Shown: in pieces, positions 4,398 to 19,328 of the stretch
Position numbering within the stretch: position 1 is the stretch's first letter
Layout: every line of letters starts with the position of its first letter
The notes under the pieces: generated by a model
What the model was told of the DNA's origin: nothing
The model's input: only the letters and a program-made list of their open reading frames with translations
Database searches by the model: none
Program-made: the position numbers and the translations under genes
DNA from: a virus
Direction: 5' to 3' (one strand)
Virus record (IMG/VR): IMGVR_UViG_3300043607_000039
Coordinates: 29,001-93,000 of that record
Length of the DNA stretch: 64,000 nucleotides

Positions 4398-4470
4398 AGG
4401 GGTGTAGCTCAATTGGCTGAGCTGTCGTCTCCAAAGCGACCGGTTGCAGGTTCGAGTCCTGTCACCCCTG
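4398..4470 (+). tRNA. tRNA-Trp(CCA)
   Basis: Cloverleaf; gtcgt-CTCCAAA-gcgac. Confidence 0.9.
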
Positions 4471-4574
4471 CGTGTTACTTCCGGGCAACCGGAGTTACTT
4501 GAGAATTCCACAGTGGACAGCATGTGTAGATAGAGTCCTGGCCTGTGCCATCACGGGTGGGCCAGGACTATCTT

Positions 4575-4648
4575 CGGGACGTAGCGCAGTCAGGTCGCGC
4601 GCCTGCTTTGGGAGCAGGAGGACGTCGGTTCGAATCCGACCGTCCCGA
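4575..4648 (+). tRNA. tRNA-Pro(TGG)
   Basis: cctgc-TTTGGGA-gcagg. Confidence 0.9.
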
Positions 4649-4653
4649 CGCAT

Positions 4654-4730
4654 GGGGGTATGGCGCAGTTGGTAGCGCGTCTGTCTGTATGGCATACAGA
4701 AGGCCCGCGGTTCGAGTCCGCGTATCTCCA
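4654..4730 (+). tRNA. tRNA-Ala(GGC), with 4-nt TCTG duplication before anticodon stem
   Basis: tctgt-ATGGCAT-acaga; G3.U70. Confidence 0.75.
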
Positions 4731-4826
4731 CGGGTCGTAGTTCAGGGTAGAGCGCCGCGTAAAGGTGTTAGCCGCAAGGTGCACGGAATGTAGCGGAGGC
4801 GCAGGAATCGAATCCTGCCGACTCCA
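4731..4826 (+). ncRNA. tRNA-like RNA with anticodon loop replaced by extended hairpin
   Basis: D arm, T arm and acceptor present; ~34-nt insert with GCAA tetraloop in place of anticodon loop. Confidence 0.6.
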
Positions 4827-4830
4827 GTCT

Positions 4831-4903
4831 GGGGATGTAGCTCACTTGGTAGAGCGCTGTCTTCGCAAGGCAGAGGCAAGGAGTTCGAATCTCCTCATCT
4901 CCA
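4831..4903 (+). tRNA. tRNA-Ala(CGC)
   Basis: ctgtc-TTCGCAA-ggcag. Confidence 0.9.
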
Positions 4904-4953
4904 CGTCGGTATGGGAAGCTCCGAGGTGAGCAACCTCGCCTGTGCCGGCTCCA

Positions 4954-5030
4954 TGTTCCCTAGCTCATCGACAGAGCGTCAGTCCTGATACGACTGGAGG
5001 TCCGGGGTTTAATTCCTCGGGGGAGCACCA
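4954..5030 (+). tRNA. tRNA with GAT anticodon (Ile), atypical
   Basis: cagtc-CTGATAC-gactg; T loop TTTAATT; encoded CCA. Confidence 0.65.
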
Positions 5031-5031
5031 A

Positions 5032-5103
5032 GTCCCTGTAGCTGAGATGGTCTAGCGCTTGGTTGAAGCCCAGGAGACCTCGGTTCAAGTCCGGGCGGGG
5101 ACA
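5032..5103 (+). tRNA. tRNA-Phe(GAA)
   Basis: cttgg-TTGAAGC-ccagg. Confidence 0.85.
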
Positions 5104-5109
5104 CGCAAT

Positions 5110-5183
5110 GCGCTGTTGGAGGAATTGGTTAACTCACCGCCCTCTCAAGGCGGAGACTACGGGTTCGAAACCCGTACAGCGTA
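5110..5183 (+). tRNA. tRNA-Glu(CTC)
   Basis: ccgcc-CTCTCAA-ggcgg. Confidence 0.9.
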
Positions 5184-5318
5184 CGAGTAACTGGAGCAGG
5201 ATTTGCCGTAAGGCGATCAATGGAGCGCGCGCAGAAAAAGTGGCCTCTGAAAAAGGGCGTCCTGGTCCGTTGGCCTGCAACAACTAATCCATCCAGGACT
5301 GCTTCAGTTCCTCATCTA

Positions 5319-5389
5319 GCCGGCGAAGTGTTGTGGTGACACCTCTGTCTTCCAAACAGATATGGCGAGTTCGATTCTCGTCGCCGGCT
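5319..5389 (+). tRNA. tRNA-Gly(TCC)
   Basis: tctgt-CTTCCAA-acaga. Confidence 0.9.
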
Positions 5390-5390
5390 C

Positions 5391-5894
5391 GTGTTCCCCA
5401 TTCCCAAGGAAATCGACGAGCTAGACGCTGACAGTCGCATGATGTTTCTGCGTCACGCGGCCATGTATGAGGACATCTCCTGGACCATGATCCGTCATAC
5501 GAACGACCTGCACGCGGTAGTCACCGAGGAGGAAATGAAGGCAGATGCCTTCGCCCACGCAATGTCTAGCGCGGTGAGCGAGGCAGCTCGATGCCTGGAG
5601 CACTCCTTCTACACCCGTCGCCATCGGGAACAGGACGAGGAGGGCCGGTCCGAGAGGATGTCGTGGTTCTCCCGCGGCGAGGCCTGCGGCCAGAACTACG
5701 TGGCCTACCAGGTAATCCGGACCGCTTACGAGATCCTGCGGGCGGAGTACGGCATCCTGGAGAAGCACTCCGAGATCTGGGACAGGATCGAGGCGGACCC
5801 TGAAGTCAAGAAGCGTAACGACTACATGGAAAGCCTGTTCGTGACCCTGCATCCCCCCAGGTCCGTACCTAACTCCTCGGAGGAGAGGGAATGA
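5391..5894 (+). CDS. Hypothetical protein
   Basis: 167 aa ORF starting 2 nt after tRNA-Gly. Confidence 0.65.
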   Translation: MFPIPKEIDELDADSRMMFLRHAAMYEDISWTMIRHTNDLHAVVTEEEMKADAFAHAMSSAVSEAARCLEHSFYTRRHREQDEEGRSERMSWFSRGEACGQNYVAYQVIRTAYEILRAEYGILEKHSEIWDRIEADPEVKKRNDYMESLFVTLHPPRSVPNSSEERE

Positions 5895-6286
5895 CTCGCT
5901 TCAAGCGATGGCTCGCCAGCCTGGCCGTCGGCCTCCTGGTGATCACGGGCGTGCTCGTGGTCACGGAAGCTCCGGCCGCTGCGGCCCCGTACTGTCCCCC
6001 CAACTACGCCTGCCTCTACGAGAACCAGGGAGGCGGCGGCTCCTCGATCTCGTTCTACTACAGCCCCTACTCCTGCATCTACCTCGGCGGCGGCTTCAAC
6101 GACCGGGCCTCGTCGGTTCGGAACGAAACCCCCATCCAGATCAAGTTCCGGGACAACTTCGACTGCACCGGCAGCTATGTGGCCGCGGGTGCCGCCTGTG
6201 GTGGCTGTCTCGGGTCCTACATCAACGACCTGGCCGGCTGGCCCTACTTCTTCAACGACCGGGTCAGTGCGATCCAGTTCTACTAG
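5891..6286 (+). CDS. Secreted peptidase inhibitor I36 / beta-gamma-crystallin-like protein
   Basis: Signal peptide, CPPNYACLYEN..FNDRASSVRN, FNDRVSAI. Confidence 0.75.
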   Translation: MTRFKRWLASLAVGLLVITGVLVVTEAPAAAAPYCPPNYACLYENQGGGGSSISFYYSPYSCIYLGGGFNDRASSVRNETPIQIKFRDNFDCTGSYVAAGAACGGCLGSYINDLAGWPYFFNDRVSAIQFY

Positions 6287-6331
6287 CAAGAGCGTGTGAC
6301 CCGACCATATGACTCATGGTCGGGTCACCAT

Positions 6332-6404
6332 TCCGGGGTACGGCGTTGGTGCCGTGGCCGCGCTTTGGACGCGGAACCCATAGGTTCGATTCCTGTACCC
6401 GGAG
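6332..6404 (+). tRNA. tRNA-Gln(TTG)
   Basis: ccgcg-CTTTGGA-cgcgg. Confidence 0.8.
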
Positions 6405-6407
6405 CTT

Positions 6408-6480
6408 GCCTCGGTGGGCTAATGGAAAAGCCGCGGTACTCAAACTGCCGTGAATGACGGTTCGAATCCGTCCCTTGGCA
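6408..6480 (+). tRNA. tRNA-Leu(CAA), short variable arm, 2 acceptor mismatches
   Basis: cggta-CTCAAAC-tgccg. Confidence 0.7.
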
Positions 6481-6486
6481 CGCAAT

Positions 6487-6560
6487 GCCGGTATAGCTCA
6501 GTAGGTCAGAGCGCTTCCTCGGTAAGGAAGAGGCCTCCGGTTCGATTCCGGATTCCGGCT
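6487..6560 (+). tRNA. tRNA-Thr(GGT)
   Basis: cttcc-TCGGTAA-ggaag. Confidence 0.9.
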
Positions 6561-6678
6561 CGGCAATCCCTGGTCCGGGCGAATGACCCGGTGAAAGAGG
6601 TGCGCTCCTTCTAGAAGCAGCCTTGTTGTGGGCGCAAGTCCAAACAATGAAGTCTGACGCCGGGGAACTGCATATCAA

Positions 6679-6755
6679 GCGGATGAAGCTCAGCCTGGTC
6701 GAGCGCTATCTTGCCAAGGTAGATGTCGCGGGTTCGAATCCCGTCTTCCGCTCCA
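6679..6755 (+). tRNA. tRNA-Gly(GCC)
   Basis: ctatc-TTGCCAA-ggtag; CCA end. Confidence 0.9.
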
Positions 6756-6765
6756 GTAACAACAT

Positions 6766-6837
6766 GCGGGTGTGGCGCAACGGTAGCGAGGCTCCCTCTA
6801 AAGGAGATGGTTGCGGGTTCGAGTCCCGTCGCCCGCA
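6766..6837 (+). tRNA. Amber suppressor tRNA (CTA)
   Basis: ctcc-CTCTAAA-ggag; intact acceptor and T arm. Confidence 0.8.
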
Positions 6838-6886
6838 CGTGACAAACACATAGGTAAGAAACGACAAGGTTCATGGAGGTGAACCA

Positions 6887-7330
6887 GTGCAAGCAGTCCT
6901 CGTTCTCAACGCTGACCTCGGGCCCTTGCACCGGGTCAGCCTCAAGCACGCGATCCGGATGCTCTGCCGTGGTATCGCAGAGGTCCACGAAGCGGAGCCT
7001 GACATACGCTTCGGTCTGTGGCCGTGGCCCACTGCGGTCAGACTCGTCCGGTACATCGTGACGAAGTGGCGCTACACCGCTGGACCCGCGTGGTCCCGGC
7101 AAGGCGTCCTGAACCGAGACAACCGGACCTGCGGCTACTGCGGTAGCCGCGAAGGTCGCACCGTCGACCACATTCTCCCCACCTCCCGGGGCGGGAAGAA
7201 CACCTGGCAGAACACGGTCGCCTCGTGCGATCCCTGCAACCAGATCAAAGGCAACCGGACCCCGCAAGAGGCCGGCATGCGACTCCTGGTGAAGCCAGCC
7301 GCCCCGAGCTGGGCGACGATGAAGCGGTAA
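6887..7330 (+). CDS. HNH endonuclease
   Basis: VLVLNA N-terminus, RD..TCGYCG, TVDHILPTSRGG, CDPCNQIKG. Confidence 0.9.
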   Translation: MQAVLVLNADLGPLHRVSLKHAIRMLCRGIAEVHEAEPDIRFGLWPWPTAVRLVRYIVTKWRYTAGPAWSRQGVLNRDNRTCGYCGSREGRTVDHILPTSRGGKNTWQNTVASCDPCNQIKGNRTPQEAGMRLLVKPAAPSWATMKR

Positions 7331-7439
7331 AGCAAGAGGCTGGTCCCGATCTGTTCGAGATAATCCCATGGTGAAGACGATGGTCAACGGGTCCATGGAC
7401 CCCGGGATCTAGCGCCAGCCTTCCATGAAACACACACAT

Positions 7440-7512
7440 TCCGAGTTGGTGTAAATCGGTAGCATGGCGGTCTCTGAAACCGTCGGTCTAGGTTCGAGCC
7501 CTGGACTCGGAG
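7440..7512 (+). tRNA. tRNA-Gln(CTG)
   Basis: gcggt-CTCTGAA-accgt. Confidence 0.9.
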
Positions 7513-7533
7513 CAGTAACTCTTGGGGGCACAC

Positions 7534-7788
7534 ATGACAAAAGTCATCGTGTTCCACACCGGGTACGGATGCTGGACCGGTTGTTGTGGACATGCCATTG
7601 CCGTGGTCGACGAGAACGGCAACGAGAAGCGGCAGGCGTTCGAATTCGCTCACCCTTACTTCAAGGGCGAGCGGACCGAAGAGGAAGCCAAGAAGTGGGC
7701 CCAGCAGCTGGTCGCCAACGAAATGGGCAGCGCCCATGTCGCCGACCTGGACTGGGAACATTGCATCATCGAAGATGATGTCTACTAG
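7534..7788 (+). CDS. Hypothetical protein
   Basis: ORF with GCWTGCCGH motif, high GC3. Confidence 0.6.
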   Translation: MTKVIVFHTGYGCWTGCCGHAIAVVDENGNEKRQAFEFAHPYFKGERTEEEAKKWAQQLVANEMGSAHVADLDWEHCIIEDDVY

Positions 7789-7882
7789 TCTCCGCTAGCT
7801 GGAGTCACGTCTAGCGCACCACGGCGGTAATGCAGTCCCTGCCTCCCATGGCGTACTGGCGTCGAGGCAGGGACTGCATCCA

Positions 7883-7963
7883 GGGGGTAGTAGGTACGAC
7901 TGGTGTTGAAGGCCGAGGCATCGGAGCGGCATCAGGACTCGGGTTCGAATCCCGATACCTCCA
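7883..7963 (+). ncRNA. Minimal tmRNA (tRNA-like domain only, no tag reading frame)
   Basis: GGGGGTA/TACCTCC-A acceptor with G3.U70; stemless D loop ..GGTACGAC; P2-like CTGGTGTTG/CGGCATCAG; GAC linker; T arm. Confidence 0.75.
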
Positions 7964-7972
7964 CACGGAAAT

Positions 7973-8045
7973 GCTCTGGTAGCCCAAAGGTAGAGGCACT
8001 GTCTTGAGGAGGCAGCCAGTGGGAGTTCGACTCTCCCTCGGAGCA
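7973..8045 (+). tRNA. tRNA-Leu(GAG), short variable arm
   Basis: ctgtc-TTGAGGA-ggcag. Confidence 0.85.
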
Positions 8046-8046
8046 C

Positions 8047-8121
8047 GGTCTGGGCGTAGCCCAAAGGTAGAGGCAGCCCCTCAAAGGTGTAGTTGCGGAT
8101 TCGACCCCCGCCCCCAGGCCA
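8047..8121 (+). pseudogene. Degenerate tRNA (Leu-like D arm; anticodon CAA or TCA ambiguous)
   Basis: D arm identical to preceding Leu tRNA; poor anticodon stem. Confidence 0.5.
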
Positions 8122-8126
8122 CCTTT

Positions 8127-8199
8127 GCCGGCGTAGCTCACCAGGTAGAGCGCGGATCTTGTAAATCCGAGGCAGTCGGTTCGAGTCCGACCGTCGGCT
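8127..8199 (+). tRNA. tRNA-Thr(TGT)
   Basis: cggat-CTTGTAA-atccg. Confidence 0.9.
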
Positions 8200-8200
8200 C

Positions 8201-8605
8201 GTGAATCACAGGCACAGCGAATACGAGGAGATCTCGGGAGTACCGGAGATCACCGACTTCAAGCTCCTCTGGATTAGCGGCTTCTACGACGGCCCCACAT
8301 CCGGACTGGTCCAGGTCGGCGAAAGCCTGTGCTGGGCGCAAATGATCGAAGAGTGCAGTGAGGATCCAGGCTGCGGTTGGTACCGCAAGTACAAGCTCAT
8401 GAAGATGAGCGTCGAGCAGATTCTCGACCAGGTCCAGCAGCACGCACTGTTTGCCAAGTTCGTGTCAGGCCAAAAGGAACTGGGCTGGGACTGGACTCAG
8501 ATTGACACCCAACGGCCCCATTCGGAATGGTCGGGCTACTACGACCAGTACGGAACAGACGCCCAGGATCCGGTCGGAGAAGTTGTGGGGTGGTTCGTTC
8601 GATGA
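8201..8605 (+). CDS. Hypothetical protein
   Basis: 134 aa, FYDGPTSG motif; starts 2 nt after tRNA-Thr. Confidence 0.65.
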   Translation: MNHRHSEYEEISGVPEITDFKLLWISGFYDGPTSGLVQVGESLCWAQMIEECSEDPGCGWYRKYKLMKMSVEQILDQVQQHALFAKFVSGQKELGWDWTQIDTQRPHSEWSGYYDQYGTDAQDPVGEVVGWFVR

Positions 8606-8940
8606 AACACGGATATACACTCGCGACGATCTACTCCAGGACCAGTAAGAGGTACCAGGTCGAGTTCTGGTCCCAACCCTGGCGCCATTGGATCGTGGCC
8701 AACGTCTACCACTGGTACGACATGCACGTCTTCAAGGTGCCTGGGTTCAGACGCCTGGAGAAGTGGCTCCACGACCGGCACGGCAACGATCCACTGGAGT
8801 ACATCCCGCTGGGGTGCCGTCAGGACCTCCGGTGCTGGCACCTCACCAACAAGAGGCGGGTCCAGTTGGTGACCCTCGGGATCACTGCCGAGCAGTACGG
8901 ACGACTAGGAGGCAGGTATGGCTCGGAGGGTGCCCAATAA
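8602..8940 (+). CDS. Hypothetical protein
   Basis: ATGA overlap with upstream gene. Confidence 0.55.
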   Translation: MKHGYTLATIYSRTSKRYQVEFWSQPWRHWIVANVYHWYDMHVFKVPGFRRLEKWLHDRHGNDPLEYIPLGCRQDLRCWHLTNKRRVQLVTLGITAEQYGRLGGRYGSEGAQ

Positions 8941-9121
8941 GTGGCCCGGCCCTCCGCACCTGGAGCCCTACAACGGACTCTGGGTGGGAGTAGTGGGCCG
9001 TCGAGTCGTAGTACACGGAGAAAGCCCCGAGCAGGTCCGAGCCAAGATCAAGCACCTGCGGCGCCAGGTCGACGCCGTGTTCGAGGTCCCTGCGTACAAG
9101 AAATGGGGGAAAGAAGAATGA
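8918..9121 (+). CDS. Hypothetical protein
   Basis: RBS GGAGG; YNGLWVGV..VVVHGES. Confidence 0.55.
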   Translation: MARRVPNKWPGPPHLEPYNGLWVGVVGRRVVVHGESPEQVRAKIKHLRRQVDAVFEVPAYKKWGKEE

Positions 9122-9262
9122 TCCCCTGGTGGATGTGGCTGATCGGACTGCTGGGCCTGGCGACCGCGGTAATTGGCTGGTCAATCACCCAGACTCCTCC
9201 GGGAGACAAGGACGCAGCCCCACGTCAGGATGCACAATGGTGGCGATAGCTCGGGAGGGTCA

Positions 9263-9451
9263 ATGATGCAGTTTGTGAAGAGCACCAAATGCGAAACGGG
9301 TGCCTGTGTCGAGGTAGCCCTTGGTGAGGATCGGGCGCTGGTGCGCAACTCCACACAGCCAGGCACGGTCAACGAGTTCCCCAAGGAGATGTGGGAGGGC
9401 TTCGTGGCCGCAGTTCGACAGGGAACGTTCGACTTTGACTCGCCCGTGTAG
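9263..9451 (+). CDS. DUF397 (BldB-like) protein
   Basis: KST.C..GACVEVA...VRNS....W..FVAAVR.G. Confidence 0.85.
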   Translation: MMQFVKSTKCETGACVEVALGEDRALVRNSTQPGTVNEFPKEMWEGFVAAVRQGTFDFDSPV

Positions 9452-9515
9452 CTCGGACGGTTCGAGCAGCCGCCTCGTAAGCGGAAGGATCCCAGTTCGA
9501 ATCTGGGCTCGGGCT
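9442..9515 (+). tRNA. tRNA-Thr(CGT)
   Basis: ccgc-CTCGTAA-gcgg. Confidence 0.85.
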
Positions 9516-9518
9516 CGG

Positions 9519-9587
9519 GGGTTGAGCACTGGTGTGCAGGTTTGCTTTGCAAGCAGACCCCGCGGAGTTCGACTCTCCGTCAATCCA
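9519..9587 (+). tRNA. tRNA-Ala(TGC), short D arm
   Basis: tttgc-TTTGCAA-gcaga; G3.U70. Confidence 0.75.
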
Positions 9588-9705
9588 CGCCTGCGTCCAC
9601 AGGCCCAGGTGAAGGGTACGGACGGCGAGGTAAGAACCAGGATTAGCGGGTCGGCTGGTTGGGCCTGTTGGTTCTCACATGGTCCTGGTCGCCCTTCATC
9701 ACCAT

Positions 9706-9780
9706 GCCGAGGTAGGCCACGCTGGCGAGCCGCTGCATTTAGGGTGCAGTGTTAGGCGGGTTCGACTCCCGTCCTCGGTA
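9706..9780 (+). tRNA. tRNA-Leu(TAG), short variable arm
   Basis: ctgca-TTTAGGG-tgcag. Confidence 0.8.
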
Positions 9781-9817
9781 CTTGAAATAGCAGACGTGGT
9801 GAGTAAACTGTCATCCC

Positions 9818-10372
9818 ATGCGCCTGCTCGTCAAGACATATGGCCCGTATATCTACAGGTCTGGCAATAGGTTACGTCGGTTCGTGATCCACCTTTACGA
9901 CGACGGCACTCGTCGTACCCAGTCCAATGCCCGATACCTGTTGGAGCAACACCTGGGGCGCCTACTGACAGAAGACGAAGACGCCGATCATATTGACGGA
10001 AACCCTTTGAATGATGACCTATCCAACTTACGTCCGTTGTCGTCTTTCGAAAACCGAAGTCGAGCACATGAGCCTGCGCCTCTCTATGAGTTCAGCTGCC
10101 TCATGTGTGGTAATTCAGCGGTCACGCTGTTGCGTGACTATCGACGTAACCAGGAGGTTCTCGGGAAAGCTGGACCCTTCTGTAGCAAGTCGTGTTCGGG
10201 GACATGGTCCACAACCGTTGACAGGGCGAACCAGGGCAACTCCTGTAAACCCCATAAGACTCACTGCAAGTACGGTCATCTGAAGACAGGCCTGATCAGA
10301 AAGGCAGATGGATCCGTGTACAAGAACTGCAACGAATGTAACCGCTTACGTGCTCAATTACGTCGGAAGTAA
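9818..10372 (+). CDS. HNH homing endonuclease
   Basis: HLGRLL..DADHIDGNPLNDDLSNL; FCSKSC; KTHCKYGH; lower GC. Confidence 0.85.
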   Translation: MRLLVKTYGPYIYRSGNRLRRFVIHLYDDGTRRTQSNARYLLEQHLGRLLTEDEDADHIDGNPLNDDLSNLRPLSSFENRSRAHEPAPLYEFSCLMCGNSAVTLLRDYRRNQEVLGKAGPFCSKSCSGTWSTTVDRANQGNSCKPHKTHCKYGHLKTGLIRKADGSVYKNCNECNRLRAQLRRK

Positions 10373-10382
10373 CGCCGCCTTC

Positions 10383-10455
10383 GGGCGGGTACTCCAACGG
10401 TAGAGAGAGCTGATTTAAAACCAGTCCAGTACGGGTTCGACTCCCGTGCCGCCCA
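10383..10455 (+). tRNA. tRNA-Leu(TAA), short variable arm
   Basis: gctga-TTTAAAA-ccagt. Confidence 0.8.
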
Positions 10456-10499
10456 CAGTTGGTTTTCAGCAGTACCCTCTCCTGGAGAGAGATAGTCAA

Positions 10500-10573
10500 G
10501 GTGTCGTGGCGTAGTTGGTTAGCGCACCTCCCTGTCACGGAGGAGATCGCGGGTTCGAGTCCCGTCGGCGCCG
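10500..10573 (+). tRNA. tRNA-Asp(GTC)
   Basis: cctcc-CTGTCAC-ggagg. Confidence 0.9.
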
Positions 10574-10574
10574 C

Positions 10575-10859
10575 ATGTCAGATGAAACAGAACCATTGCC
10601 CTGTCTTATCTGTGCCAGGAGGCTCAGGGCCGCAATGCCCGATGCCTACAACCAGCCGTGGGGTGCGACCATGTTCCATTCCCACGGCCAGTACGGCAGC
10701 ACCCTGTTCGACCCCATTCACAGCATGGTGCGACTAGAAATCAACATCTGCGACGAGTGCCTCAGGGCGCACAAGGAGCGGGTCATTTACGTTCGGGATC
10801 ATCACGTCGAGCCGACACACGACGTAATGCCGTGGGACCCGAACATGTTCGACGATTAA
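10575..10859 (+). CDS. Hypothetical Zn-binding phage protein
   Basis: CLIC..GQYGST.FD..ICDEC; starts 2 nt after tRNA-Asp. Confidence 0.65.
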   Translation: MSDETEPLPCLICARRLRAAMPDAYNQPWGATMFHSHGQYGSTLFDPIHSMVRLEINICDECLRAHKERVIYVRDHHVEPTHDVMPWDPNMFDD

Positions 10860-10865
10860 TTGAAT

Positions 10866-10955
10866 AGTGAGATGGCCGAGTGGTCGAAGGCGCAGCACTG
10901 CTAATGCTGAGGTCGCCGTTAAGGGGGCCCCCGGGTTCGAATCCCGGTCTCACTG
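10866..10955 (+). tRNA. tRNA-Ser(GCT)
   Basis: cagca-CTGCTAA-tgctg; long V arm. Confidence 0.9.
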
Positions 10956-10960
10956 CACAA

Positions 10961-11035
10961 GGGAGCGTAGCTCAGCCCGGTTTGAGCACCCGTCTGATAA
11001 GCGGGAGGTCGGCGGTTCAAATCCGTCCGCTCCTA
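10961..11035 (+). tRNA. tRNA-Ile(GAT)
   Basis: cccgt-CTGATAA-gcggg. Confidence 0.9.
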
Positions 11036-11045
11036 CGTAACACAT

Positions 11046-11119
11046 GCCCCCTTAGTTCAGAGGATTAGAACATCTGACTACGGATCAGAAGGTCGCGTGT
11101 TCGAATCACGCAGGGGGTG
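11046..11119 (+). tRNA. tRNA-Arg(ACG)
   Basis: tctga-CTACGGA-tcaga. Confidence 0.9.
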
Positions 11120-11716
11120 CTCACTGGATATGGCGGATGTTACGATGTCGTCGTGGAGCGGGACGAGCGACGTGCATGGCGACGCGTTTATGACAAGACC
11201 TGGGTGGCCGGAAAGCGCGATCGATGCTTCAAATACCTAGGTGGCCGTTGTCGGAGATGTGGTACCACAGAACAACTCCAGTTTGATCACATCGATCCGA
11301 AGTCACTGTCTTTTCGGATCTCGGGAAATCTCAACCGACGTTGGGAGGTATTGGTCGTCGAGCTGGATAAATGCCAGCTGCTATGCCTTCCTTGTCATCG
11401 CCGAAAGTCGAAGGAAAACGGTGAAACGGGAGGCGGCCAGAACAAGTTTTTAACATGTCCGCATGGAACCCTGTCTGGTTACGGAGCGCCATGGAAATGT
11501 CGTTGTGACGATTGCCGTCGGGTCAAATCCGACTACGTCAGAAAGTACCGCAAGACAAATGGATTAATGAAGCGCCTAACCAAGCAGACAGTTCTTGAGA
11601 TACGAAGCCTCTTCGCTAGAGGCACCCCTTACTTGGAATTGGCTGAGAAGTTCAACGTTGACAGGACAACGGTGTGGAAGATATGCACCCGAAGGACCTG
11701 GAAGCATCTTGAATAG
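11117..11716 (+). CDS. HNH homing endonuclease with C-terminal HTH
   Basis: LGGRCRRCG..LQFDHIDP..KCQLLCLPCH; LAEKFNV..TWKHL; start uncertain. Confidence 0.85.
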   Translation: MLTGYGGCYDVVVERDERRAWRRVYDKTWVAGKRDRCFKYLGGRCRRCGTTEQLQFDHIDPKSLSFRISGNLNRRWEVLVVELDKCQLLCLPCHRRKSKENGETGGGQNKFLTCPHGTLSGYGAPWKCRCDDCRRVKSDYVRKYRKTNGLMKRLTKQTVLEIRSLFARGTPYLELAEKFNVDRTTVWKICTRRTWKHLE

Positions 11717-11763
11717 TCCGCGAATTCTACTCGGGGGCATTCGTTCGAGATCCTGGAGAGAAC

Positions 11764-11925
11764 ATGGCTTACGACTACGACAAGGCGAAGCAGATTGTCA
11801 TAGACGCCCTGCGCGATGAAGACCAGCGCGGCGGCCCGATGCAGCGCGAGTACCCGCGCGCCATCATCGAATCACTGGCGCACAACATCGCACTGCAAAT
11901 CGAGGAAGAGGCCGTCAGCGAGTAG
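11764..11925 (+). CDS. Small hypothetical protein
   Basis: CCTGGAGAG RBS; MAYDYDKAKQIVIDAL... Confidence 0.55.
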   Translation: MAYDYDKAKQIVIDALRDEDQRGGPMQREYPRAIIESLAHNIALQIEEEAVSE

Positions 11926-11933
11926 GGCTCGGC

Positions 11934-12007
11934 CGGGATGTAGCGCAGCTTGGTAGCGCACCTGACTGGGGGTCAGGAGGGCGCAGGTTCAAATCCTGTC
12001 ATCCCGA
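11934..12007 (+). tRNA. tRNA-Pro(GGG)
   Basis: cctga-CTGGGGG-tcagg. Confidence 0.9.
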
Positions 12008-12215
12008 CGTGAAACAGAAACTGGCTCGATTGTTGTGGTGGTGGCGCAAGGTCAATGACGCTCCCTGCGGCTTGGACACCGATGAGTACGTGAACGGGGT
12101 CCATGTCTGGCGCCACAGTAAATGGTTCTGTCACTGTGATTGACTTCCTCCCCACAGGAGCGGGTGGAAGGGCTCTTCCCGAGTCCTGACTCGTCACCAG
12201 GGGGGAGGGCCTTAT

Positions 12216-12288
12216 CGGGGTGTAGCGCAGTTGGTAGCGCGCCGCGTTCGGGACGCGGAGGCCGTCAGTTCGAATCTGGCCACTCCGA
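12216..12288 (+). tRNA. tRNA-Pro(CGG)
   Basis: ccgcg-TTCGGGA-cgcgg. Confidence 0.9.
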
Positions 12289-12300
12289 CGCAATGCGCAT

Positions 12301-12418
12301 GGAGGGTGGCGCCCAGTGGTGGGCAACCTTGATGGAGAGGGTCCGGCTGGACGAGGAGCCGTATTCGAAGTGCGGTAGTAGCTAATCACTGCTCGGGGTT
12401 CAAGTCCCCGTCTCTCCG
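12301..12418 (+). tRNA. tRNA-Ser(CGA) with ~32-nt insertion between D arm and anticodon stem
   Basis: ccgta-TTCGAAG-tgcgg, long V arm, G73; extra structured segment ~12327-12358. Confidence 0.65.
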
Positions 12419-12426
12419 CTCACAAT

Positions 12427-12514
12427 AGAGGCTGACCGGTTGGTCGAGGGGCACGGTTGGAAGCCGTGTACAACGCTCAGAAACGTTGCAGGAGTTCGAA
12501 TCTCCTAGCCTCTG
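12427..12514 (+). tRNA. tRNA-Ser(GGA)
   Basis: cacgg-TTGGAAG-ccgtg; long V arm. Confidence 0.85.
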
Positions 12515-12520
12515 CGTCAA

Positions 12521-12606
12521 GGAAGAGCCACCCGATTGGAGACGGGCGCAGTTTTGAAAACTGTTAGAGTCGCAAGGCTTTGGGGATTCGACTTCCTCCT
12601 CTTCCG
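12521..12606 (+). tRNA. tRNA-Ser(TGA)
   Basis: gcagt-TTTGAAA-actgt; long V arm. Confidence 0.85.
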
Positions 12607-12621
12607 CTCTACAATGGACAT

Positions 12622-12691
12622 ACCCTGCGTGTTGGATACACAGCCGATGCTTCTAACGTTGGCGTTCCGGGTTCGAGTCCCGGGCAGGGTT
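12622..12691 (+). tRNA. tRNA-Arg(TCT)
   Basis: cgatg-CTTCTAA-cgttg. Confidence 0.8.
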
Positions 12692-12695
12692 CGAC

Positions 12696-12772
12696 GGTCC
12701 GGTGCCAGAGCGGCCAATTGGAACCGCCTTTTAAGCGGTAAAAGTCGTGAGTTCGAATCTCACCCGGTACCA
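12696..12772 (+). tRNA. tRNA-Lys(TTT)
   Basis: accgc-CTTTTAA-gcggt. Confidence 0.85.
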
Positions 12773-12818
12773 CGCGCAAAGGTGTTAGAGTCTAGGCGCA
12801 GCAAGGAAAACTACACAT

Positions 12819-12894
12819 GGATCCGTACCCAAAGCCTGGTTTATGGGCCCGCCTCTTAAGCGGAGTTACGTCGGTTCAAATCCGACCGGATCCA
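12819..12894 (+). tRNA. tRNA-Lys(CTT)
   Basis: ccgc-CTCTTAA-gcgg. Confidence 0.85.
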
Positions 12895-12908
12895 CGTAGT
12901 ACATGCGA

Positions 12909-12982
<74 letters not shown>

Positions 12983-12984
12983 CT

Positions 12985-13056
12985 TGCGGGTTAGTGGAAT
13001 GGAACCATAAGGGCCTCATAAGCCCTAGATGCCGTTCGAGTCGGCACCCGCTCCCA
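12985..13056 (+). tRNA. tRNA-Met(CAT)
   Basis: agggc-CTCATAA-gccct. Confidence 0.75.
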
Positions 13057-13121
13057 CATGATGGTCCTGCCACGGGGAGTGGCAGGCGTAAGCGCGGCAT
13101 ACACTCCGCGGCCCGTTACAG

Positions 13122-13195
13122 CTTCCGGTAGCTCAGCTTGGTAGAGCATCTCTATGACACGGAGAAGGCCTCAGGTTCAAATCCTGGTCGGAAGA
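13122..13195 (+). tRNA. tRNA-Val(GAC)
   Basis: tctct-ATGACAC-ggaga. Confidence 0.85.
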
Positions 13196-13196
13196 C

Positions 13197-13270
13197 GGAA
13201 CCGTAGACTAATTGGTTAGGTCCCCGGACTTTCAATTCGGGTGGTGCCGGTTCGAACCCGGTCGGTTCTA
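13197..13270 (+). tRNA. tRNA-Glu(TTC)
   Basis: ccgga-CTTTCAA-ttcgg. Confidence 0.85.
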
Positions 13271-13284
13271 CGTTTTACGCTCAT

Positions 13285-13358
13285 TCTCCAGTAGCTCAAT
13301 TGGCGGAGCAGCCCGCTGTTAACGGGAAGGTTTCCAGGTTCGACCCCTGGCTGGAGAG
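13285..13358 (+). tRNA. tRNA-Asn(GTT)
   Basis: cccg-CTGTTAA-cggg. Confidence 0.9.
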
Positions 13359-13916
13359 CTAGCGCGAGGACATTCGGCCCTCAAGCCAGTGCAGCACGTT
13401 ATCCGCGGCCTGTCCCCGCCGCTGCCCGAGCCACGGGCGAATCAATTTCACCAAGGGGTAGAGGTGTCGTTGACGGGTCACTACCCAAACCGTCACAGGC
13501 TTGTAATAGTCCTTGGCCTGCGGTCGATATCCGTGAATGTTCCCAACGTTGGTGAGTCTTGGCAGGCGCTCGATAATATCTGGGTCCGTCATGGCGACGG
13601 ACATAGCCGCCTTAGTGTTGAGCGTGAAAGTACCTTCGCCCTCGACTAGGCCCGCTAGCCATGCGACCTCTGCTCGCGTCATCTTCCGCAGGTCCCCTGC
13701 GGCCTCGTCCCTACAGCGCCTGCACTTTTTTGAACTCTCCGACATTGGTCCGCTACACGTTGGACACGGGACCACCGAGGCGTATTTGAACTGATAGCAC
13801 TCGGCACAGTAGTTGGAGCGATTGGACCGAACCCTGACGGGCCCACCGCACATGGGGCACGGGTTCGGCTTGTAGAGGATGAGTATTTGTTCAGGATTGG
13901 TAGTACGTAGCGCCAT
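13359..13916 (-). CDS. LAGLIDADG-family endonuclease with N-terminal Zn fingers
   Basis: AWLAGLVEGEG; four CxxC pairs; antisense within the tRNA array. Confidence 0.8.
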   Translation of the reverse strand: MALRTTNPEQILILYKPNPCPMCGGPVRVRSNRSNYCAECYQFKYASVVPCPTCSGPMSESSKKCRRCRDEAAGDLRKMTRAEVAWLAGLVEGEGTFTLNTKAAMSVAMTDPDIIERLPRLTNVGNIHGYRPQAKDYYKPVTVWVVTRQRHLYPLVKLIRPWLGQRRGQAADNVLHWLEGRMSSR

Positions 13917-14026
13917 CCATCCAAAGTAACATGAGCTTGGCCCGCGGTTTCTAGGCCCGCGGAGCGGGGCGGTCCAGCTGGCCGACCTGGCACTGTTCGC
14001 CGTGGTGCCACTCAGACACGGCCCCT

Positions 14027-14101
14027 TGCGCCGTAGCCCAACCGGTTGAGGGGTCCGGCTTATATCCGGAATTCAGCAGGTTCGATTCCTGCACGGCGTA
14101 C
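14027..14101 (+). tRNA. tRNA-Ile(TAT)
   Basis: tccgg-CTTATAT-ccgga. Confidence 0.7.
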
Positions 14102-14121
14102 TTCCCCCTGGAGGAGGAGCA

Positions 14122-14409
14122 ATGCCCCGTTCGGTAGAGACCTCGACCGAGACCAAGACGTACATGGTCCGTAAGGTCAACATCACCTGCGACAAGTGCG
14201 GCCGACCCGTCGACCAGGAGCCCGAGGACGACGACCTGTACCACCAGGAGCTGGAGATCCATCTGAACCCGGAGCTGTGCGTCCGGTCCAGCTTCCGTCG
14301 GGACTACTGCCGAGCCTGTCTCCTGCCTATCTGGGCACTGATCTGCGAGACTATCGGGGCTGACCCCGATGACATCTCAAACTCTGACTTCCAGGCGGAC
14401 TACTCATGA
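14122..14409 (+). CDS. Hypothetical Zn-finger protein
   Basis: CDKC...CRAC; strong RBS. Confidence 0.65.
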   Translation: MPRSVETSTETKTYMVRKVNITCDKCGRPVDQEPEDDDLYHQELEIHLNPELCVRSSFRRDYCRACLLPIWALICETIGADPDDISNSDFQADYS

Positions 14410-14651
14410 TGGACGACGTGATCTGGACTAAGAGCAGCTACTCCGGCAGTCAGGGCGGCAACTGCGTCGAGGTGGCATGGCGCAAGAGCACGCGCAGCAA
14501 CCCGAGTGGCAACTGTGTCGAATTCGCGGAGCTACCGGGCAAGGTGCTGGTTCGGGACTCCAAGAATCCCGACGGCGGGATCATCGAGTTCGCCCCCGAC
14601 GCATGGCGCAAGTTCATCGCCGCGGTGAAGGAAGGCGAGTTCAACCTGTAG
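14406..14651 (+). CDS. DUF397 (BldB-like) protein, duplicated N-terminal motif
   Basis: WTKSSYS..GNCVEVA WRKSTRS..GNCVE..VRDSK..W.KF. Confidence 0.9.
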   Translation: MMDDVIWTKSSYSGSQGGNCVEVAWRKSTRSNPSGNCVEFAELPGKVLVRDSKNPDGGIIEFAPDAWRKFIAAVKEGEFNL

Positions 14652-14659
14652 TAGGTAAT

Positions 14660-14732
14660 GCCCGTGTAGCTCAGCGGCAAGAGCATCGGTTCCACACACC
14701 GAGGGTCCTAGGTTCGAGTCCTAGTACGGGCA
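14660..14732 (+). tRNA. tRNA-Val(CAC)
   Basis: tcggt-TCCACAC-accga. Confidence 0.9.
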
Positions 14733-14850
14733 CGTGGTGGTAGTTGCGGGTTGAGAAGGGTCTAGTTAAACGGCCGACCTGTATTCCAGTGCAGCTGCTC
14801 ATGACTTACCCGGGGGGCCGGGGTAAGGAAGACACAACAGGCCCGCACAT

Positions 14851-14925
14851 GGTGGCTGTAGCTCATCCTGGTAGAGCGCCGGACTGTGGATCCGGAGGTG
14901 GGGGGATCGTGGCCCCCCAGTCACC
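14851..14925 (+). tRNA. tRNA-His(GTG)
   Basis: ccgga-CTGTGGA-tccgg; G-1; atypical T loop ATCGTGG. Confidence 0.8.
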
Positions 14926-14948
14926 CTCGTTGATCGATCACCCTGTAC

Positions 14949-14964
14949 ACCCCTACGTAGGGGT
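14949..14964. promoter_or_regulatory. 16-bp palindromic operator (perfect copy)
   Basis: ACCCCTACGTAGGGGT. Confidence 0.65.
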
Positions 14965-14970
14965 GGTACC

Positions 14971-15345
14971 GTGGCAGCCATGATGGGATCACCGTTCGAC
15001 AACCCCCCTCCGGCCCTAGTGGCGGCAGCCGACCAGGCCAAACAGCAGGGGCTCGAAGATTCAATGAAGCTCATATGGCTGTACCTGGCGAGTAGTGTCG
15101 CCGACGAGGCCGGGGACGAGGAAACGGCCACTCAGTACCAGCTCGAACGGATGGCCTTGCTACTCAGCTTGGGCCAGATACGGACTCAGGCCGTTGTGTT
15201 GGAGCTGACCAGACTCTTCGCCTCTACCCTGTTTGACCACTGGGGTGGCACCTGGGCCAAGGTAATGGAAGCCCTGGCGGATCCCGCGCTGCCCCTCTTT
15301 CGTGGGGGACCCGTTGCCCAGGACGAGATGCCTCGGATCGACTGA
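14971..15345 (+). CDS. Hypothetical protein
   Basis: 124 aa ORF. Confidence 0.55.
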   Translation: MAAMMGSPFDNPPPALVAAADQAKQQGLEDSMKLIWLYLASSVADEAGDEETATQYQLERMALLLSLGQIRTQAVVLELTRLFASTLFDHWGGTWAKVMEALADPALPLFRGGPVAQDEMPRID

Positions 15346-15362
15346 CCCTGGAGAAGAAGCTG

Positions 15363-15848
15363 ATGCCCGAGTTGCCGAAGTGGTTCCCGAAGACCTTGGA
15401 AGACATGTACCGCCCCGAGGTCCCGGGTCGCACCGTCGACGATGACCGAGTCGCCGAGTCCCATGGCGGCGGTGCCTGCCCCGAGCAGCACTGGGGCGTC
15501 CTGACCGACGGGCGCCGGTTCTACTTCCGGTACCGCAGTGCCTGGGCCTCGGTTCGACTGGCGCCGGCCTGGTATGACGGTGCCGACGTCCACGCCCGGG
15601 ACCTGAGGGTTTCCATGGAGCAGTGGAACGAGGCCTACGAGCGCGGCGACGAGGAGCTACCGAACCTGTACCTCAATCCGGTCGCCGGCTTCCAGGTCCG
15701 GGAGGACGACCCATATCACGGGTGGTTCGACAGTGCAGCCGAGCGGGCGATGGCCTTTGCTGCCTGCCTGGATCAGGTCTGGGATGAGCCCTTCGATGAG
15801 GAGGGCTGGGAATTGCACCGCGGGCGGAAAGAGGAGCCCGACTTCTAG
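15363..15848 (+). CDS. Hypothetical phage protein
   Basis: ACPEQHWG.L.DGRRFYFRYR motif; RBS. Confidence 0.65.
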   Translation: MPELPKWFPKTLEDMYRPEVPGRTVDDDRVAESHGGGACPEQHWGVLTDGRRFYFRYRSAWASVRLAPAWYDGADVHARDLRVSMEQWNEAYERGDEELPNLYLNPVAGFQVREDDPYHGWFDSAAERAMAFAACLDQVWDEPFDEEGWELHRGRKEEPDF

Positions 15849-15919
15849 CCGATGACGGACTGGTTCCGAGCGCTGACTGTAAATCAGTAGCCTTGGGGGT
15901 TCGAATCCCTCCGTCGGCA
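15848..15919 (+). tRNA. tRNA-Tyr(GTA), short variable arm
   Basis: gctga-CTGTAAA-tcagt. Confidence 0.8.
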
Positions 15920-15932
15920 CGCGTCAATTAAC

Positions 15933-16023
15933 GCGGGTATTGAGCACCGGTAAGCTCAGCGGTCCGTTCGACCGTGGGTCGCTGACGAGTGACCAGTCAG
16001 AGTTCGAATCTCTAGTACCCGCA
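15933..16023 (+). ncRNA. Atypical long-V-arm tRNA-like RNA with non-canonical anticodon loop
   Basis: GCGGGTA/TACCCGC-A acceptor, D arm, gcggtc-CGTTC-gaccgt, 7-bp V arm, TTCGAAT. Confidence 0.6.
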
Positions 16024-16054
16024 CGCTCCCCAACGACGTAACGGATGGAGAACG

Positions 16055-17137
16055 ATGCGTTTCCTGAGAATCGCCATGACCGCGGTGCTGGTGAGTGCTT
16101 CTGCACTCCTGGCCTTCGCGGCACCGGCGCAAGCACATGCCGTCGATGACGGCTTCGGCCTCAAGGTGCACTCCTCCCACAAGGGTGTGTGTCTGTCGGC
16201 ACGGCTTCCTGTGGCTGCCGCCCCCGAGCAGCCAAAGGACTGGAGGGTCCAGGTGACCCTGTGCCAGCCGTTCCGTGTGACGCATGAGGTCGACGTCCTG
16301 ACCCACGGCGCCACGTACACCGGGGCATCGTGTCCGGCCCATGAGCCGTGTGCCTCCTACTGGGACTGGCCCCAGCAGCCCGGCAAGTACTCCTACGTCG
16401 GCAAGACGCTCGCTGACGGCCGCGCCACCTTGGCCTACGACCGGATCGGCAACGGGAACAGCAGCCGGCCCTTGAGTTCGGACATCACCATGGCGTCCGA
16501 CGCCTACGTACTGCACCAGCTGGTGGCGATCGTCAAGGCCCTGGGCTACGGGCACGTCAACTCGATCAGCCACTCCTACGGCTCTGGGGTCGCGCTCCAG
16601 GAGGCGGCCACCTACGGCGACGTTGATGCTCTGGTCCTCAGCGGCTACCTGCACCGGCCCAGCAACCCGGCCGTGACCGCCGGCAACTACCCGGCCAACA
16701 TGGACCCCAAGTTCCTGACGTCCGGTCTGGACAACGGGTACCTGACGTCCCGACCGGGTGTCCGTGGTACTTCGTTCCACTCCCCGACTTCGGACCCGGC
16801 CGTGGTGGCCTATGACGAGACGCAGAAGGACCTGGTCTCGCTGACCGGCCTGCTCGGGTTCCTCGGGGCTCGTGCAGTCCCGGCCGCCACGAACATCTCG
16901 AACACCATCACGGTGCCGGTGCTGGTCGTCAACGGCCAGCAGGACGCGATCTTCTGCTACCTCCCGGCGACGTTCAACTGCGCCGACGCGGCAGTGGTGA
17001 CCGCGAACGAGGCTCCGTTCTACGCCAACGCGGCCAGCTTCTCGGTGGTGACGATTGTGGACAGTGGTCATGACCTGACTCTGCACCCGACCGGCGCGGA
17101 GGACTCCTACCAGGTGATCAACGACTGGCTGGACTGA
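16055..17137 (+). CDS. Secreted alpha/beta hydrolase
   Basis: Signal peptide; HGATY, DRIGNGNS, SHSYG, PVLVVNGQQD, SGHDLTLH. Confidence 0.85.
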   Translation: MRFLRIAMTAVLVSASALLAFAAPAQAHAVDDGFGLKVHSSHKGVCLSARLPVAAAPEQPKDWRVQVTLCQPFRVTHEVDVLTHGATYTGASCPAHEPCASYWDWPQQPGKYSYVGKTLADGRATLAYDRIGNGNSSRPLSSDITMASDAYVLHQLVAIVKALGYGHVNSISHSYGSGVALQEAATYGDVDALVLSGYLHRPSNPAVTAGNYPANMDPKFLTSGLDNGYLTSRPGVRGTSFHSPTSDPAVVAYDETQKDLVSLTGLLGFLGARAVPAATNISNTITVPVLVVNGQQDAIFCYLPATFNCADAAVVTANEAPFYANAASFSVVTIVDSGHDLTLHPTGAEDSYQVINDWLD

Positions 17138-17697
17138 TGCCGAAACTCCTGGAGAGAGTGGCGGCAGTTGTTGCGATCACCCTTCTGCTCACCGGCTGCG
17201 TGCCGGCTGGCGGGAACGGCAACGGAGGTGGGGGCTTCACGGTCCCACCGTCGCCGGTACCACAGAGTCTGACGCCAGCCGTCGTTGGTCCCTCGGGCCA
17301 GGTTGACGTGGTCTTCATGGTGGAGACCTTCGACCAGCACGTCCTACCAACCGTCCGGGACAACGTGCTCATGATCGTGAGCGCCTTCTCGGCTGATGGC
17401 AGGATGGCCAGGTACATCGACAAGGTTACTGGCGAGTCGCTGCCGGGACCGCAAAGCTACTACCGCACAACGCCTTGGCCCTACTCGGCCACACTGGGCG
17501 TCGGCGTGGTCGCAGCGCATGTCTCCGGTGTCTTGAGCCCTGCGACCAGGGGTGAAGGAATCCGGTGCACGGTTGAAGTGGGTGGCACGCCGTTCCCACA
17601 GCTGACCGTCGAGAAGGTCGTGGAAGTGGACTACGGCGCGGCTCAAGTGACGTGCCTGTACTCACTTCCGGCTGGAGGCTTCAAGCCCCCGATGTAA
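17137..17697 (+). CDS. Lipoprotein
   Basis: LLTGC lipobox; paralog of 18809-19315. Confidence 0.75.
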   Translation: MPKLLERVAAVVAITLLLTGCVPAGGNGNGGGGFTVPPSPVPQSLTPAVVGPSGQVDVVFMVETFDQHVLPTVRDNVLMIVSAFSADGRMARYIDKVTGESLPGPQSYYRTTPWPYSATLGVGVVAAHVSGVLSPATRGEGIRCTVEVGGTPFPQLTVEKVVEVDYGAAQVTCLYSLPAGGFKPPM

Positions 17698-17736
17698 CGG
17701 CACGAACCGCTGGCGGGGTACCTACCGCTGGCGTCT

Positions 17737-17809
17737 GTCCTCGTAGCTCAACGGATAGAGCGCTGCCCTCCGAAGGCAGAGGTTGCTGGTTCGAATCCAG
17801 TCGAGGACG
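17737..17809 (+). tRNA. tRNA-Arg(CCG)
   Basis: ctgcc-CTCCGAA-ggcag. Confidence 0.92.
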
Positions 17810-17887
17810 CGGTGAGCGGGCCACGGTATACGGGGCCTGTGGAAGAGCTGGTCGAAGGGTCGATCAACCACCTACTTTCTGGAGAGA

Positions 17888-18415
17888 GTGATGGCTGAAG
17901 GAATCGCACCGGCCGTCGCGCTGATCAACCCCAAGCACCCACGCAACGTGGGTGCGGTGGTCAGGGCGGCCAGCTGCTACCAGATCAAGCAGGTGTGGTT
18001 CAGCGGCCACCGCGTGGCCCTGGAACCGCACCCCGGGTACCGCCTTCCACGTGAAGAGCGGATGCGGGGCTACAAGGACGTGGCCCTGCGCAACAGTGAC
18101 CGGATCTTCGATCAGTTCACCCCCGACGTCGTACCGGTGGCCGTCGAGCTGGTGCCCGGCTCTGAGTCGCTCATCTGGTTCGAGCATCCCGACAACGCCC
18201 TCTACGTCTTCGGGCCGGAGGACGGCTCCCTGAACCGCAGCGTCCTGGGGCAGTGTCACCGGTTCGTGCAGATTCCTACCCAGCACTGCACCAACCTGGG
18301 GGCCGCGGTCTACACGGTCCTGTATGACCGTCACGCCAAGCGCGTCCGTGCCGGCCTGGACCAGCTCCACGAGCCTGGCCGCCTGACCTACGCTGATGAT
18401 GACGGGGAGGGCTGA
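17888..18415 (+). CDS. SpoU/TrmH-family RNA 2'-O-methyltransferase
   Basis: NPKHPRNVGAVVRAA, YVFGPEDG, IP..CTNLGAAV. Confidence 0.85.
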   Translation: MMAEGIAPAVALINPKHPRNVGAVVRAASCYQIKQVWFSGHRVALEPHPGYRLPREERMRGYKDVALRNSDRIFDQFTPDVVPVAVELVPGSESLIWFEHPDNALYVFGPEDGSLNRSVLGQCHRFVQIPTQHCTNLGAAVYTVLYDRHAKRVRAGLDQLHEPGRLTYADDDGEG

Positions 18416-18645: not shown

Positions 18646-18691
18646 ACAGTCGTATCAAGGAAGCCGTTGCCCAGGTCGTGGTAACAAACAA

Positions 18692-18763
18692 GCGCATGTG
18701 GCTGAATGGTAAAGCGCACGCCTGCAAAGCGTGCTTTCGCCGGTTCGAATCCGGCCTTGCGCT
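18692..18763 (+). tRNA. tRNA-Cys(GCA)
   Basis: cacgc-CTGCAAA-gcgtg; U73. Confidence 0.9.
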
Positions 18764-18770
18764 CGATGCA

Positions 18771-18800: not shown

Positions 18801-18808
18801 CGCACCAA

Positions 18809-19315: not shown

Positions 19316-19328
19316 GCCCTAGAGTCTG

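Follow-up and report, generated by a model that had tools for sequence, protein, structure and literature searches.

Bacteria rescue ribosomes and control protein quality mainly by trans-translation, which is also a drug target. In tmRNA the tRNA-like domain (TLD) carries G3·U70 and A73, the identity set of alanyl-tRNA synthetase (AlaRS), and its elbow is bound by SmpB (PMC3968760). SmpB takes the place of the anticodon arm and helix 2 plays the part of a long variable arm, and ribosomes whose mRNA channel is empty receive the alanyl-TLD·SmpB complex from EF-Tu (PMC3968760, PMC3929946). As summarized in PMC3929946, which cites Shimizu and Ueda 2006, a TLD fragment together with SmpB enters ribosomes in vitro and makes polyalanine without any mRNA. 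A phage tmRNA consisting of this domain alone has already been published, namely the "TLD only" tmRNA of phage DS6A (tmRNA Website tmID 11587, Phage__Mycobacterium.9; Mao et al. 2009, as summarized in PMC4131195 and PMC11915505), which we located at JN698994.1:28478-28557 and which is the only published case in the literature that we searched. According to the same two summaries, both citing Mao et al. 2009, this form inhibits the endogenous tmRNA in E. coli; in the account given in PMC4131195 the inhibition is strong, perhaps acts via titration of SmpB, and does not require that the molecule be chargeable.

Tag-less tmRNAs are also known from organelles, in the mitochondria of jakobids and oomycetes and, as forms of ~65 bp, in plastids (PMC11915505). 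Like the RNA described here, they consist of the TLD only and, if they work at all, would do so with an SmpB that is encoded elsewhere. In contrast, the organellar molecules descend vertically from an endosymbiont ssrA and are paired with imported SmpB, whereas the present RNA is viral and would use the SmpB of the host against, or in place of, the host's own tmRNA.

This viral RNA is an 81-base mini-tmRNA, which spans exactly 7883-7963 (+) of the window, i.e. of the whole 64,000-nt stretch of DNA that was analysed, bases 29001-93000 of an IMG/VR virus record of 93 kb. An earlier note on this DNA had read its anatomy as an alanine-type acceptor stem, a stemless D loop, a P2-like helix closed by a short hairpin, a GAC linker and a T arm, and this reading is borne out in all its parts, since the sequence itself and both the minimum free energy (MFE) and the centroid folds of the 81 bases agree with the structure that had been proposed (Table 1). 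A GG doublet is found in the D loop GUAGGUACGA, whose last bases are CGA, the C that follows being the first base of the P2 helix; this helix (CUGGUGUUG/CGGCAUCAG) has 9 bp, three G·U pairs among them. After A73 the sequence continues with CAC, so that CCA is not encoded. The fold energy (-33.7 kcal/mol, z -2.16, with 6 of 200 shuffled sequences equally stable) is by itself only modest evidence, and the strong evidence comes from the models.

Table 1. Parts of the mini-tmRNA and the hairpin that precedes it (window coordinates)
Feature	Position	Strand	Basis and remarks
Perfect 16-bp hairpin, arm ATGCAGTCCCTGCCTC, 18-nt loop	7830..7879	+	Unique in the window, without U tract; ends 3 bases before the RNA 5' end
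Acceptor stem, 5' strand GGGGGUA, 7 bp with UACCUCC	7883..7889	+	Fold; RF00023 and R1 acceptor columns; G3 of G3·U70 at 7885
Stemless D loop GUAGGUACGA, 10 unpaired bases	7890..7899	+	Fold, R1, RF00023
P2-like helix, 5' strand CUGGUGUUG	7900..7908	+	Fold; helix covaries family-wide
Closing module: 5' internal loop AAGG, 4-bp hairpin CCGA-GGCA-UCGG, 3' bulge AG	7909..7926	+	Fold, R1, RF00023
P2-like helix, 3' strand CGGCAUCAG	7927..7935	+	Fold, family alignment
GAC linker, tmRNA-typical, joins P2 to T arm	7936..7938	+	Fold, RF00023
T arm UCGGG-UUCGAAU-CCCGA	7939..7955	+	Fold, R1, RF00023
Acceptor 3' strand UACCUCC and discriminator A73	7956..7963	+	Fold; U70 at 7960, A73 at 7963

With full-length tmRNAs (RF00023, and those of Gordonia phage Boopy, Mycobacterium phage Kumao and Streptomyces phage Sushi23) the element shares the acceptor, the D loop, P2a, the GAC linker and the T arm. 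Full-length tmRNAs have, in addition, pseudoknots, a resume codon, a tag frame and a stop codon, whereas within the 81 nt the mRNA-like domain is absent altogether and no sequence is left that could form PK1 to PK4. Nor does the 81-nt fold offer a 7-nt anticodon loop, the sole hairpin loop available for one being the GGCA tetraloop. A canonical tRNA-Ala was ruled out, as the element lacks a D stem as well as the 7-nt anticodon loop and is called neither by ARAGORN nor by the Rfam tRNA model.

That the element is a tmRNA with only its tRNA-like domain, as the earlier note had claimed, is supported by its global alignment to the Rfam tmRNA model RF00023, by a covarying family that includes the DS6A RNA, and by an alanine identity set found throughout that family. 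RF00023 aligns the element from end to end but at 45.4 bits (E 2.8e-18, genome search) and 36.9 bits (E 4.9e-14, second run), below its cut-off of 47, and ARAGORN, run with tmRNA detection on, neither called the element nor reported a tag peptide. In the RF00023 alignment the acceptor, the D loop, P2a, GGAC, the T arm and the 3' strand all match, while 16 bases replace 304 model positions; the closing module thus stands where the model has the pseudoknots and the tag frame, and it resembles the A-rich loop and CCG...CGG hairpin of the related phage RNAs. No match to the element came from the Rfam tRNA model at the gathering threshold, and the best model of the tRNA/tmRNA clan was RF00023; for this clan only the best model is listed, lower-scoring matches, such as any with the mt-tmRNA model, being suppressed. 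We also built a covariance model, R1, from 23 similar phage RNAs. It gives the window element 56 bits (E 7e-11) and the DS6A RNA 62 bits, as compared with 25 bits for the best-scoring tRNA of the window, a tRNA-Ala; this score is partly circular, as R1 and most family members were gathered by a pattern that the window element satisfies, whereas that pattern had no part in the RF00023 result. These results support a tmRNA that is reduced to its tRNA-like domain, without coding sequence and of the DS6A type, and the window copy is an additional and somewhat divergent case: its D loop has ACGAC, with A at the usual U of the family (UCGAC; consensus GG(U)UUCGA), its R1 score is in the lower part of the family range and its tmRNA-model score falls slightly under the Rfam cut-off.

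A pattern of tmRNA-type features matched at least 119 viral contigs, which yielded at least 86 distinct sequences, nearly all of 74-81 nt and with seven of seven acceptor pairs; the window element fits the DS6A-type size class, about 63-100 nt, with the TLD alone in a phage genome. The earlier note had suggested that homologs be examined for covariation, and they do covary: compensatory changes were found at 16 of 23 pairs among the 86 distinct members, including seven of the eight P2 pairs, which are changed on both sides. Standard pairs fill 97.1% of the paired cells in the R1-guided alignment, versus 41-54% when the partners are slid by one to three columns; the alignment was fitted to R1 and the pattern fixed some of its columns, but not the covarying ones (acceptor 5-7, P2 and T stem 1-2). 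Where they could be scored, the CC/GG pairs of the closing module are retained in 74 of 79 and 74 of 78 sequences. With RF00023 in global mode, the mini-tmRNAs of 38 of the 39 other long carrier records score 53-81 bits, i.e. above the cut-off, leaving DS6A (43.2) and the window copy (45.4) as the two divergent ones.

Since the first pattern had imposed G1-G4 and CUCCA, the scan was rerun with the acceptor left free, which gave 111 distinct matches with at least six acceptor pairs. In this set 3:70 is G·U in 109 sequences, whereas the neighbouring pair 4:69 varies among G:C, C:G, A:U and U:A; the discriminator is A and 1:72 is G:C in all 111. Selection for recognition by AlaRS would be expected to keep a wobble while the adjacent pair covaries, and the alanine identity of the family is, judging from these positions, under selection. 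Of the 111, only 27 encode CCA. The loci among the matches listed span 33% to 71% G+C, which points to diverse hosts. ARAGORN misses the element at 85 of 87 family loci, and well over a hundred viral contigs were matched; the family is common in phages but mostly unannotated.

Family loci vary in their surroundings. Other tRNAs are present in only 21 of 87 loci, within 500 nt in 15. The head module houses the RNA, on the coding strand and beside terminase, portal, prohead protease or capsid genes, at no fewer than 15 of the 88 distinct loci; apart from these head-module genes (the largest clusters, 15 of 88) we found no family of neighbouring proteins that is conserved from locus to locus. None of the 40 other carrier records encodes SmpB, and a full-length tmRNA co-occurs in only one of them. 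On a single carrier contig (G032, the contig of L102) the pattern match falls within a full-length tmRNA (25892-26257, 366 nt, 153 bits), and 14 tRNAs lie in that region. When bacterial genomes were scanned with the acceptor-anchored pattern, two of 120 matches were true mini-tmRNAs (L210 and L211), most of the matches being the 3' third of ordinary tmRNAs. A pattern for the ACGAC variant had no match in the viral contigs, DNA searches for near and distant relatives in the phage collection, made with the window region or the element, found none and matched full-length tmRNAs annotated in actinophages only in the T arm and 3' end, and a search for syntenic loci by means of the two flanking ORFs gave nothing useful.

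The phage to which the window belongs is a distant, uncultured actinophage, since its primase/helicase is ~30% identical to the enzymes of Arthrobacter and other actinophages and most of the matches of this protein are in actinophage records (Mycobacterium, Microbacterium, Gordonia, Arthrobacter and Streptomyces). ARAGORN finds 43 tRNA genes in the window, all but one of them in a + strand array (4398-19450) that is interspersed with small ORFs. The mini-tmRNA lies in this array and is preceded by an 88-codon ORF (7522-7788) and then by the hairpin of Table 1, while a tRNA-Leu(GAG) starts 9 nt past its end on the strand of the array. The hairpin may be an element of precursor processing or stability, although whether it is part of the RNA gene is uncertain; no terminator-like site was found on the + strand between 4000 and 9500. 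Nearly all tRNAs of the array end in the discriminator and a C, with CCA not encoded, so that a CCA-adding enzyme is needed for the whole set, and the mini-tmRNA, with CAC after A73, would need the same end maturation as its neighbours. Neither SmpB nor RtcB is encoded by this phage; since SmpB is lacking here as in the 40 other carriers, any SmpB that the RNA meets must be the host's.

Several other features of the window were recorded on the way. Between the tRNA-Leu(GAG) and a tRNA-Thr lies a tRNA-like element (8048-8119) with the D arm of the neighbouring tRNA-Leu, a poor anticodon stem and a CUCAAAG-type loop, which ARAGORN does not call and whose sole match is a weak tRNA-Sec (18 bits). 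A 69-nt tRNA-like gene at 9519-9587 (R1 23 bits), for which neither ARAGORN nor the Rfam gathering list has an entry, reads by eye as a tRNA-Ala(UGC) with G3·U70 and a short variable region. Another at 12819-12894 scores 46.6 bits with the Rfam tRNA model, has no ARAGORN call, is by eye probably a tRNA-Lys(CUU), and matches the tmRNA model weakly in global mode (20.1 bits). The tRNA at 6766-6838 has a CUA anticodon (an amber suppressor, tRNA-Pyl according to ARAGORN) in a genome that otherwise uses the standard code, and the gene for the terminase large subunit (23589-26615, -) is split by an intein with a LAGLIDADG homing endonuclease. The window also encodes a Ro60/TROVE-vWA protein (39424-41058, +) and an RlaP-family RNA-repair nucleotidyltransferase (1-684, +), which together with the tRNA set and a GGQ protein (see below) suggest a broader set of genes for RNA maintenance.

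Compared with the DS6A molecule, the window RNA is likewise phage-borne, ~80 nt long and provided with G3·U70, A73 and a T arm but no tag frame. Both have a stemless D loop ending in CGAC and a P2 helix capped by an A-rich loop and a CCG...CGG hairpin, both match R1 yet fall below the Rfam tmRNA cut-off, and both are found in phages without an SmpB gene. They differ in detail, DS6A having UCGAC, GCAC and CCG-CACG-CGG where the window copy has ACGAC, GGAC and a 4-bp hairpin capped by GGCA. The DS6A copy, moreover, stands alone between two protein genes (gp33 and gp34), whereas the window copy is embedded in an array of tRNAs; DS6A encodes RtcB, which the window phage does not, and the two phages are unrelated. 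The window copy shares its setting with two mini-tmRNAs that we found in cultured phages, one unannotated in Streptomyces phage LuckySocke (OR725497.1:17977-18054, R1 83.8 bits) and one in GiJojo (PP725410.1, around 17035-17092), at a spot that is annotated within a hypothetical protein. These too are actinophages (~115 kb) with the RNA inside a tRNA array with small ORFs, here between tRNA-Val and tRNA-Ser, and with G3·U70 and A73. The LuckySocke RNA is much nearer to the family consensus than the window copy, and in the LuckySocke genome we found no RF-1 domain protein and could detect no homology to the primase of the window phage.

With respect to function, the earlier note had offered two possible roles, an SmpB decoy or a donor of alanine without a tag, and these are the same two that the literature raises for DS6A. 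On balance we lean towards the view that the element is the gene of a TLD-only tmRNA whose alanine-charged form, together with host SmpB and EF-Tu, competes with host tmRNA at stalled ribosomes. From its position and conserved features we infer that the mini-tmRNA would be transcribed along with the phage tRNA array and excised by host RNase P and 3' processing enzymes like the neighbouring tRNAs, and that host enzymes would then add CCA and host AlaRS would charge it with alanine by way of G3·U70 and A73. Host SmpB would bind the elbow formed by the D and T loops, standing in for the missing anticodon arm, and EF-Tu would bring the alanyl-RNA·SmpB complex into stalled ribosomes with an empty A site. 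Since there is neither a resume codon nor a tag frame, the RNA would vie with the tmRNA of the host for both SmpB and stalled ribosomes, and nascent chains, phage proteins included, would escape the full ssrA degradation tag and gain alanine at most. A pure SmpB sponge would have no use for a conserved alanine set, which makes the ribosome the probable site of action, and the conservation of that set suggests that the charged form may act there and not only on free SmpB. However, the dispensability of charging for inhibition, as the account in PMC4131195 has it, fits a simple sponge better than action on the ribosome. Competition with host tmRNA is the best-supported reading because it joins the conserved TLD features, the known biochemistry of the TLD and the reports of inhibition by DS6A.

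One may also consider that the RNA is not an inhibitor at all but a productive rescue molecule, tag-free or adding an alanine tail. The alanyl-RNA·SmpB complex would take over the stalled peptide and displace the broken mRNA, a codon-independent hydrolase would free the peptidyl-RNA, and ribosomes would be recycled without a degradation tag or after the addition of a few alanines. We regard this as possible but rather unlikely. It agrees with the strict conservation of the alanine identity set in the family, with the repeated addition of alanine by TLD and SmpB in vitro (as summarized in PMC3929946), and with the view that tag-less mitochondrial tmRNAs co-occurring with SmpB aid in dealing with incomplete mRNAs (PMC11915505); against it, the sole reported experiment on a TLD-only RNA, as PMC11915505 summarizes it, shows inhibition of tmRNA. 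Much depends here on the hydrolase, which elsewhere could be host ArfB or Pth and in the window phage may be the 142-aa protein encoded at 41152-41580 (-), a stand-alone RF-1 domain with the GGQ motif. The earlier note had already named this factor as a partner of the RNA, and comparison lent that idea no support. An RF-1 domain protein is present in only one of the 40 other carriers, so the two are not co-inherited, and its gene in the window lies 33 kb from the mini-tmRNA on the opposite strand. As an ArfB the protein was rejected (24.5 bits against the NCBIfam ArfB equivalog cut-off of 100), its best matches being domain 3 of RF1, RF2 and PrfH. It is therefore improbable, to our minds, that the two form a phage-encoded, SmpB-dependent pathway that replaces host ssrA tagging during infection, in which the RNA would take on the peptide, add one alanine or a few and expel the broken mRNA, release of the chain would fall to the GGQ protein, and defences that cleave mRNA or tRNA would perhaps be countered, even though such a tag-free pathway would fit a phage with 43 tRNAs, a Ro60/Y-RNA module and an RlaP-type RNA-repair gene.

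Competition with host tmRNA also has to be set against two readings in which the element takes no part in trans-translation. The location of the element in a tRNA array among small ORFs, right after a strong hairpin, and that of other family members within head-gene modules on the coding strand, would suit an uncharged tRNA-like signal that recruits RNase P and 3' enzymes to cut a polycistronic transcript or that stabilizes its ends. An acceptor/T-arm minihelix would suffice for cutting, and such a signal has no need of G3·U70 and A73, a tmRNA-type D loop, a GAC linker, a covarying P2 or a conserved closing module, which makes this role quite unlikely. Alternatively, the element might be what a recent internal deletion left of a full-length phage tmRNA of the kind seen in Gordonia, Mycobacterium and Streptomyces phages, and either without function or in the course of being lost. 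Over its 3' 30 bases it shares 84-90% identity with the ends of full-length tmRNAs annotated in actinophages, and when its TLD halves were compared at 65 positions with 108 full-length tmRNAs and 87 mini-tmRNAs they were equally like both (best matches 51 and 52 of 65, means 45.9 and 45.3). Nevertheless, all helices of the element are intact, its closing module follows the family design (A-rich loop, CCG...CGG hairpin, short 3' bulge) that is absent in the full-length phage tmRNAs compared, and the same architecture recurs in the at least 86 distinct sequences, across the whole range of G+C given above. We thus consider a deletion remnant very improbable.

What the window copy adds to the published DS6A case is a large-genome actinophage that carries a mini-tmRNA inside a full set of tRNAs, with a hairpin upstream of it, and the analysis adds negative results on linkage to genes for SmpB and for GGQ proteins that resemble release factors. 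It also points out Streptomyces phage LuckySocke, which grows on S. lividans, as a cultivable carrier. The mini-tmRNA probably interferes with the tagging of stalled proteins by the host, and a phage RNA that retains only that part of tmRNA which SmpB and AlaRS recognize would be a ready-made competitor of trans-translation.
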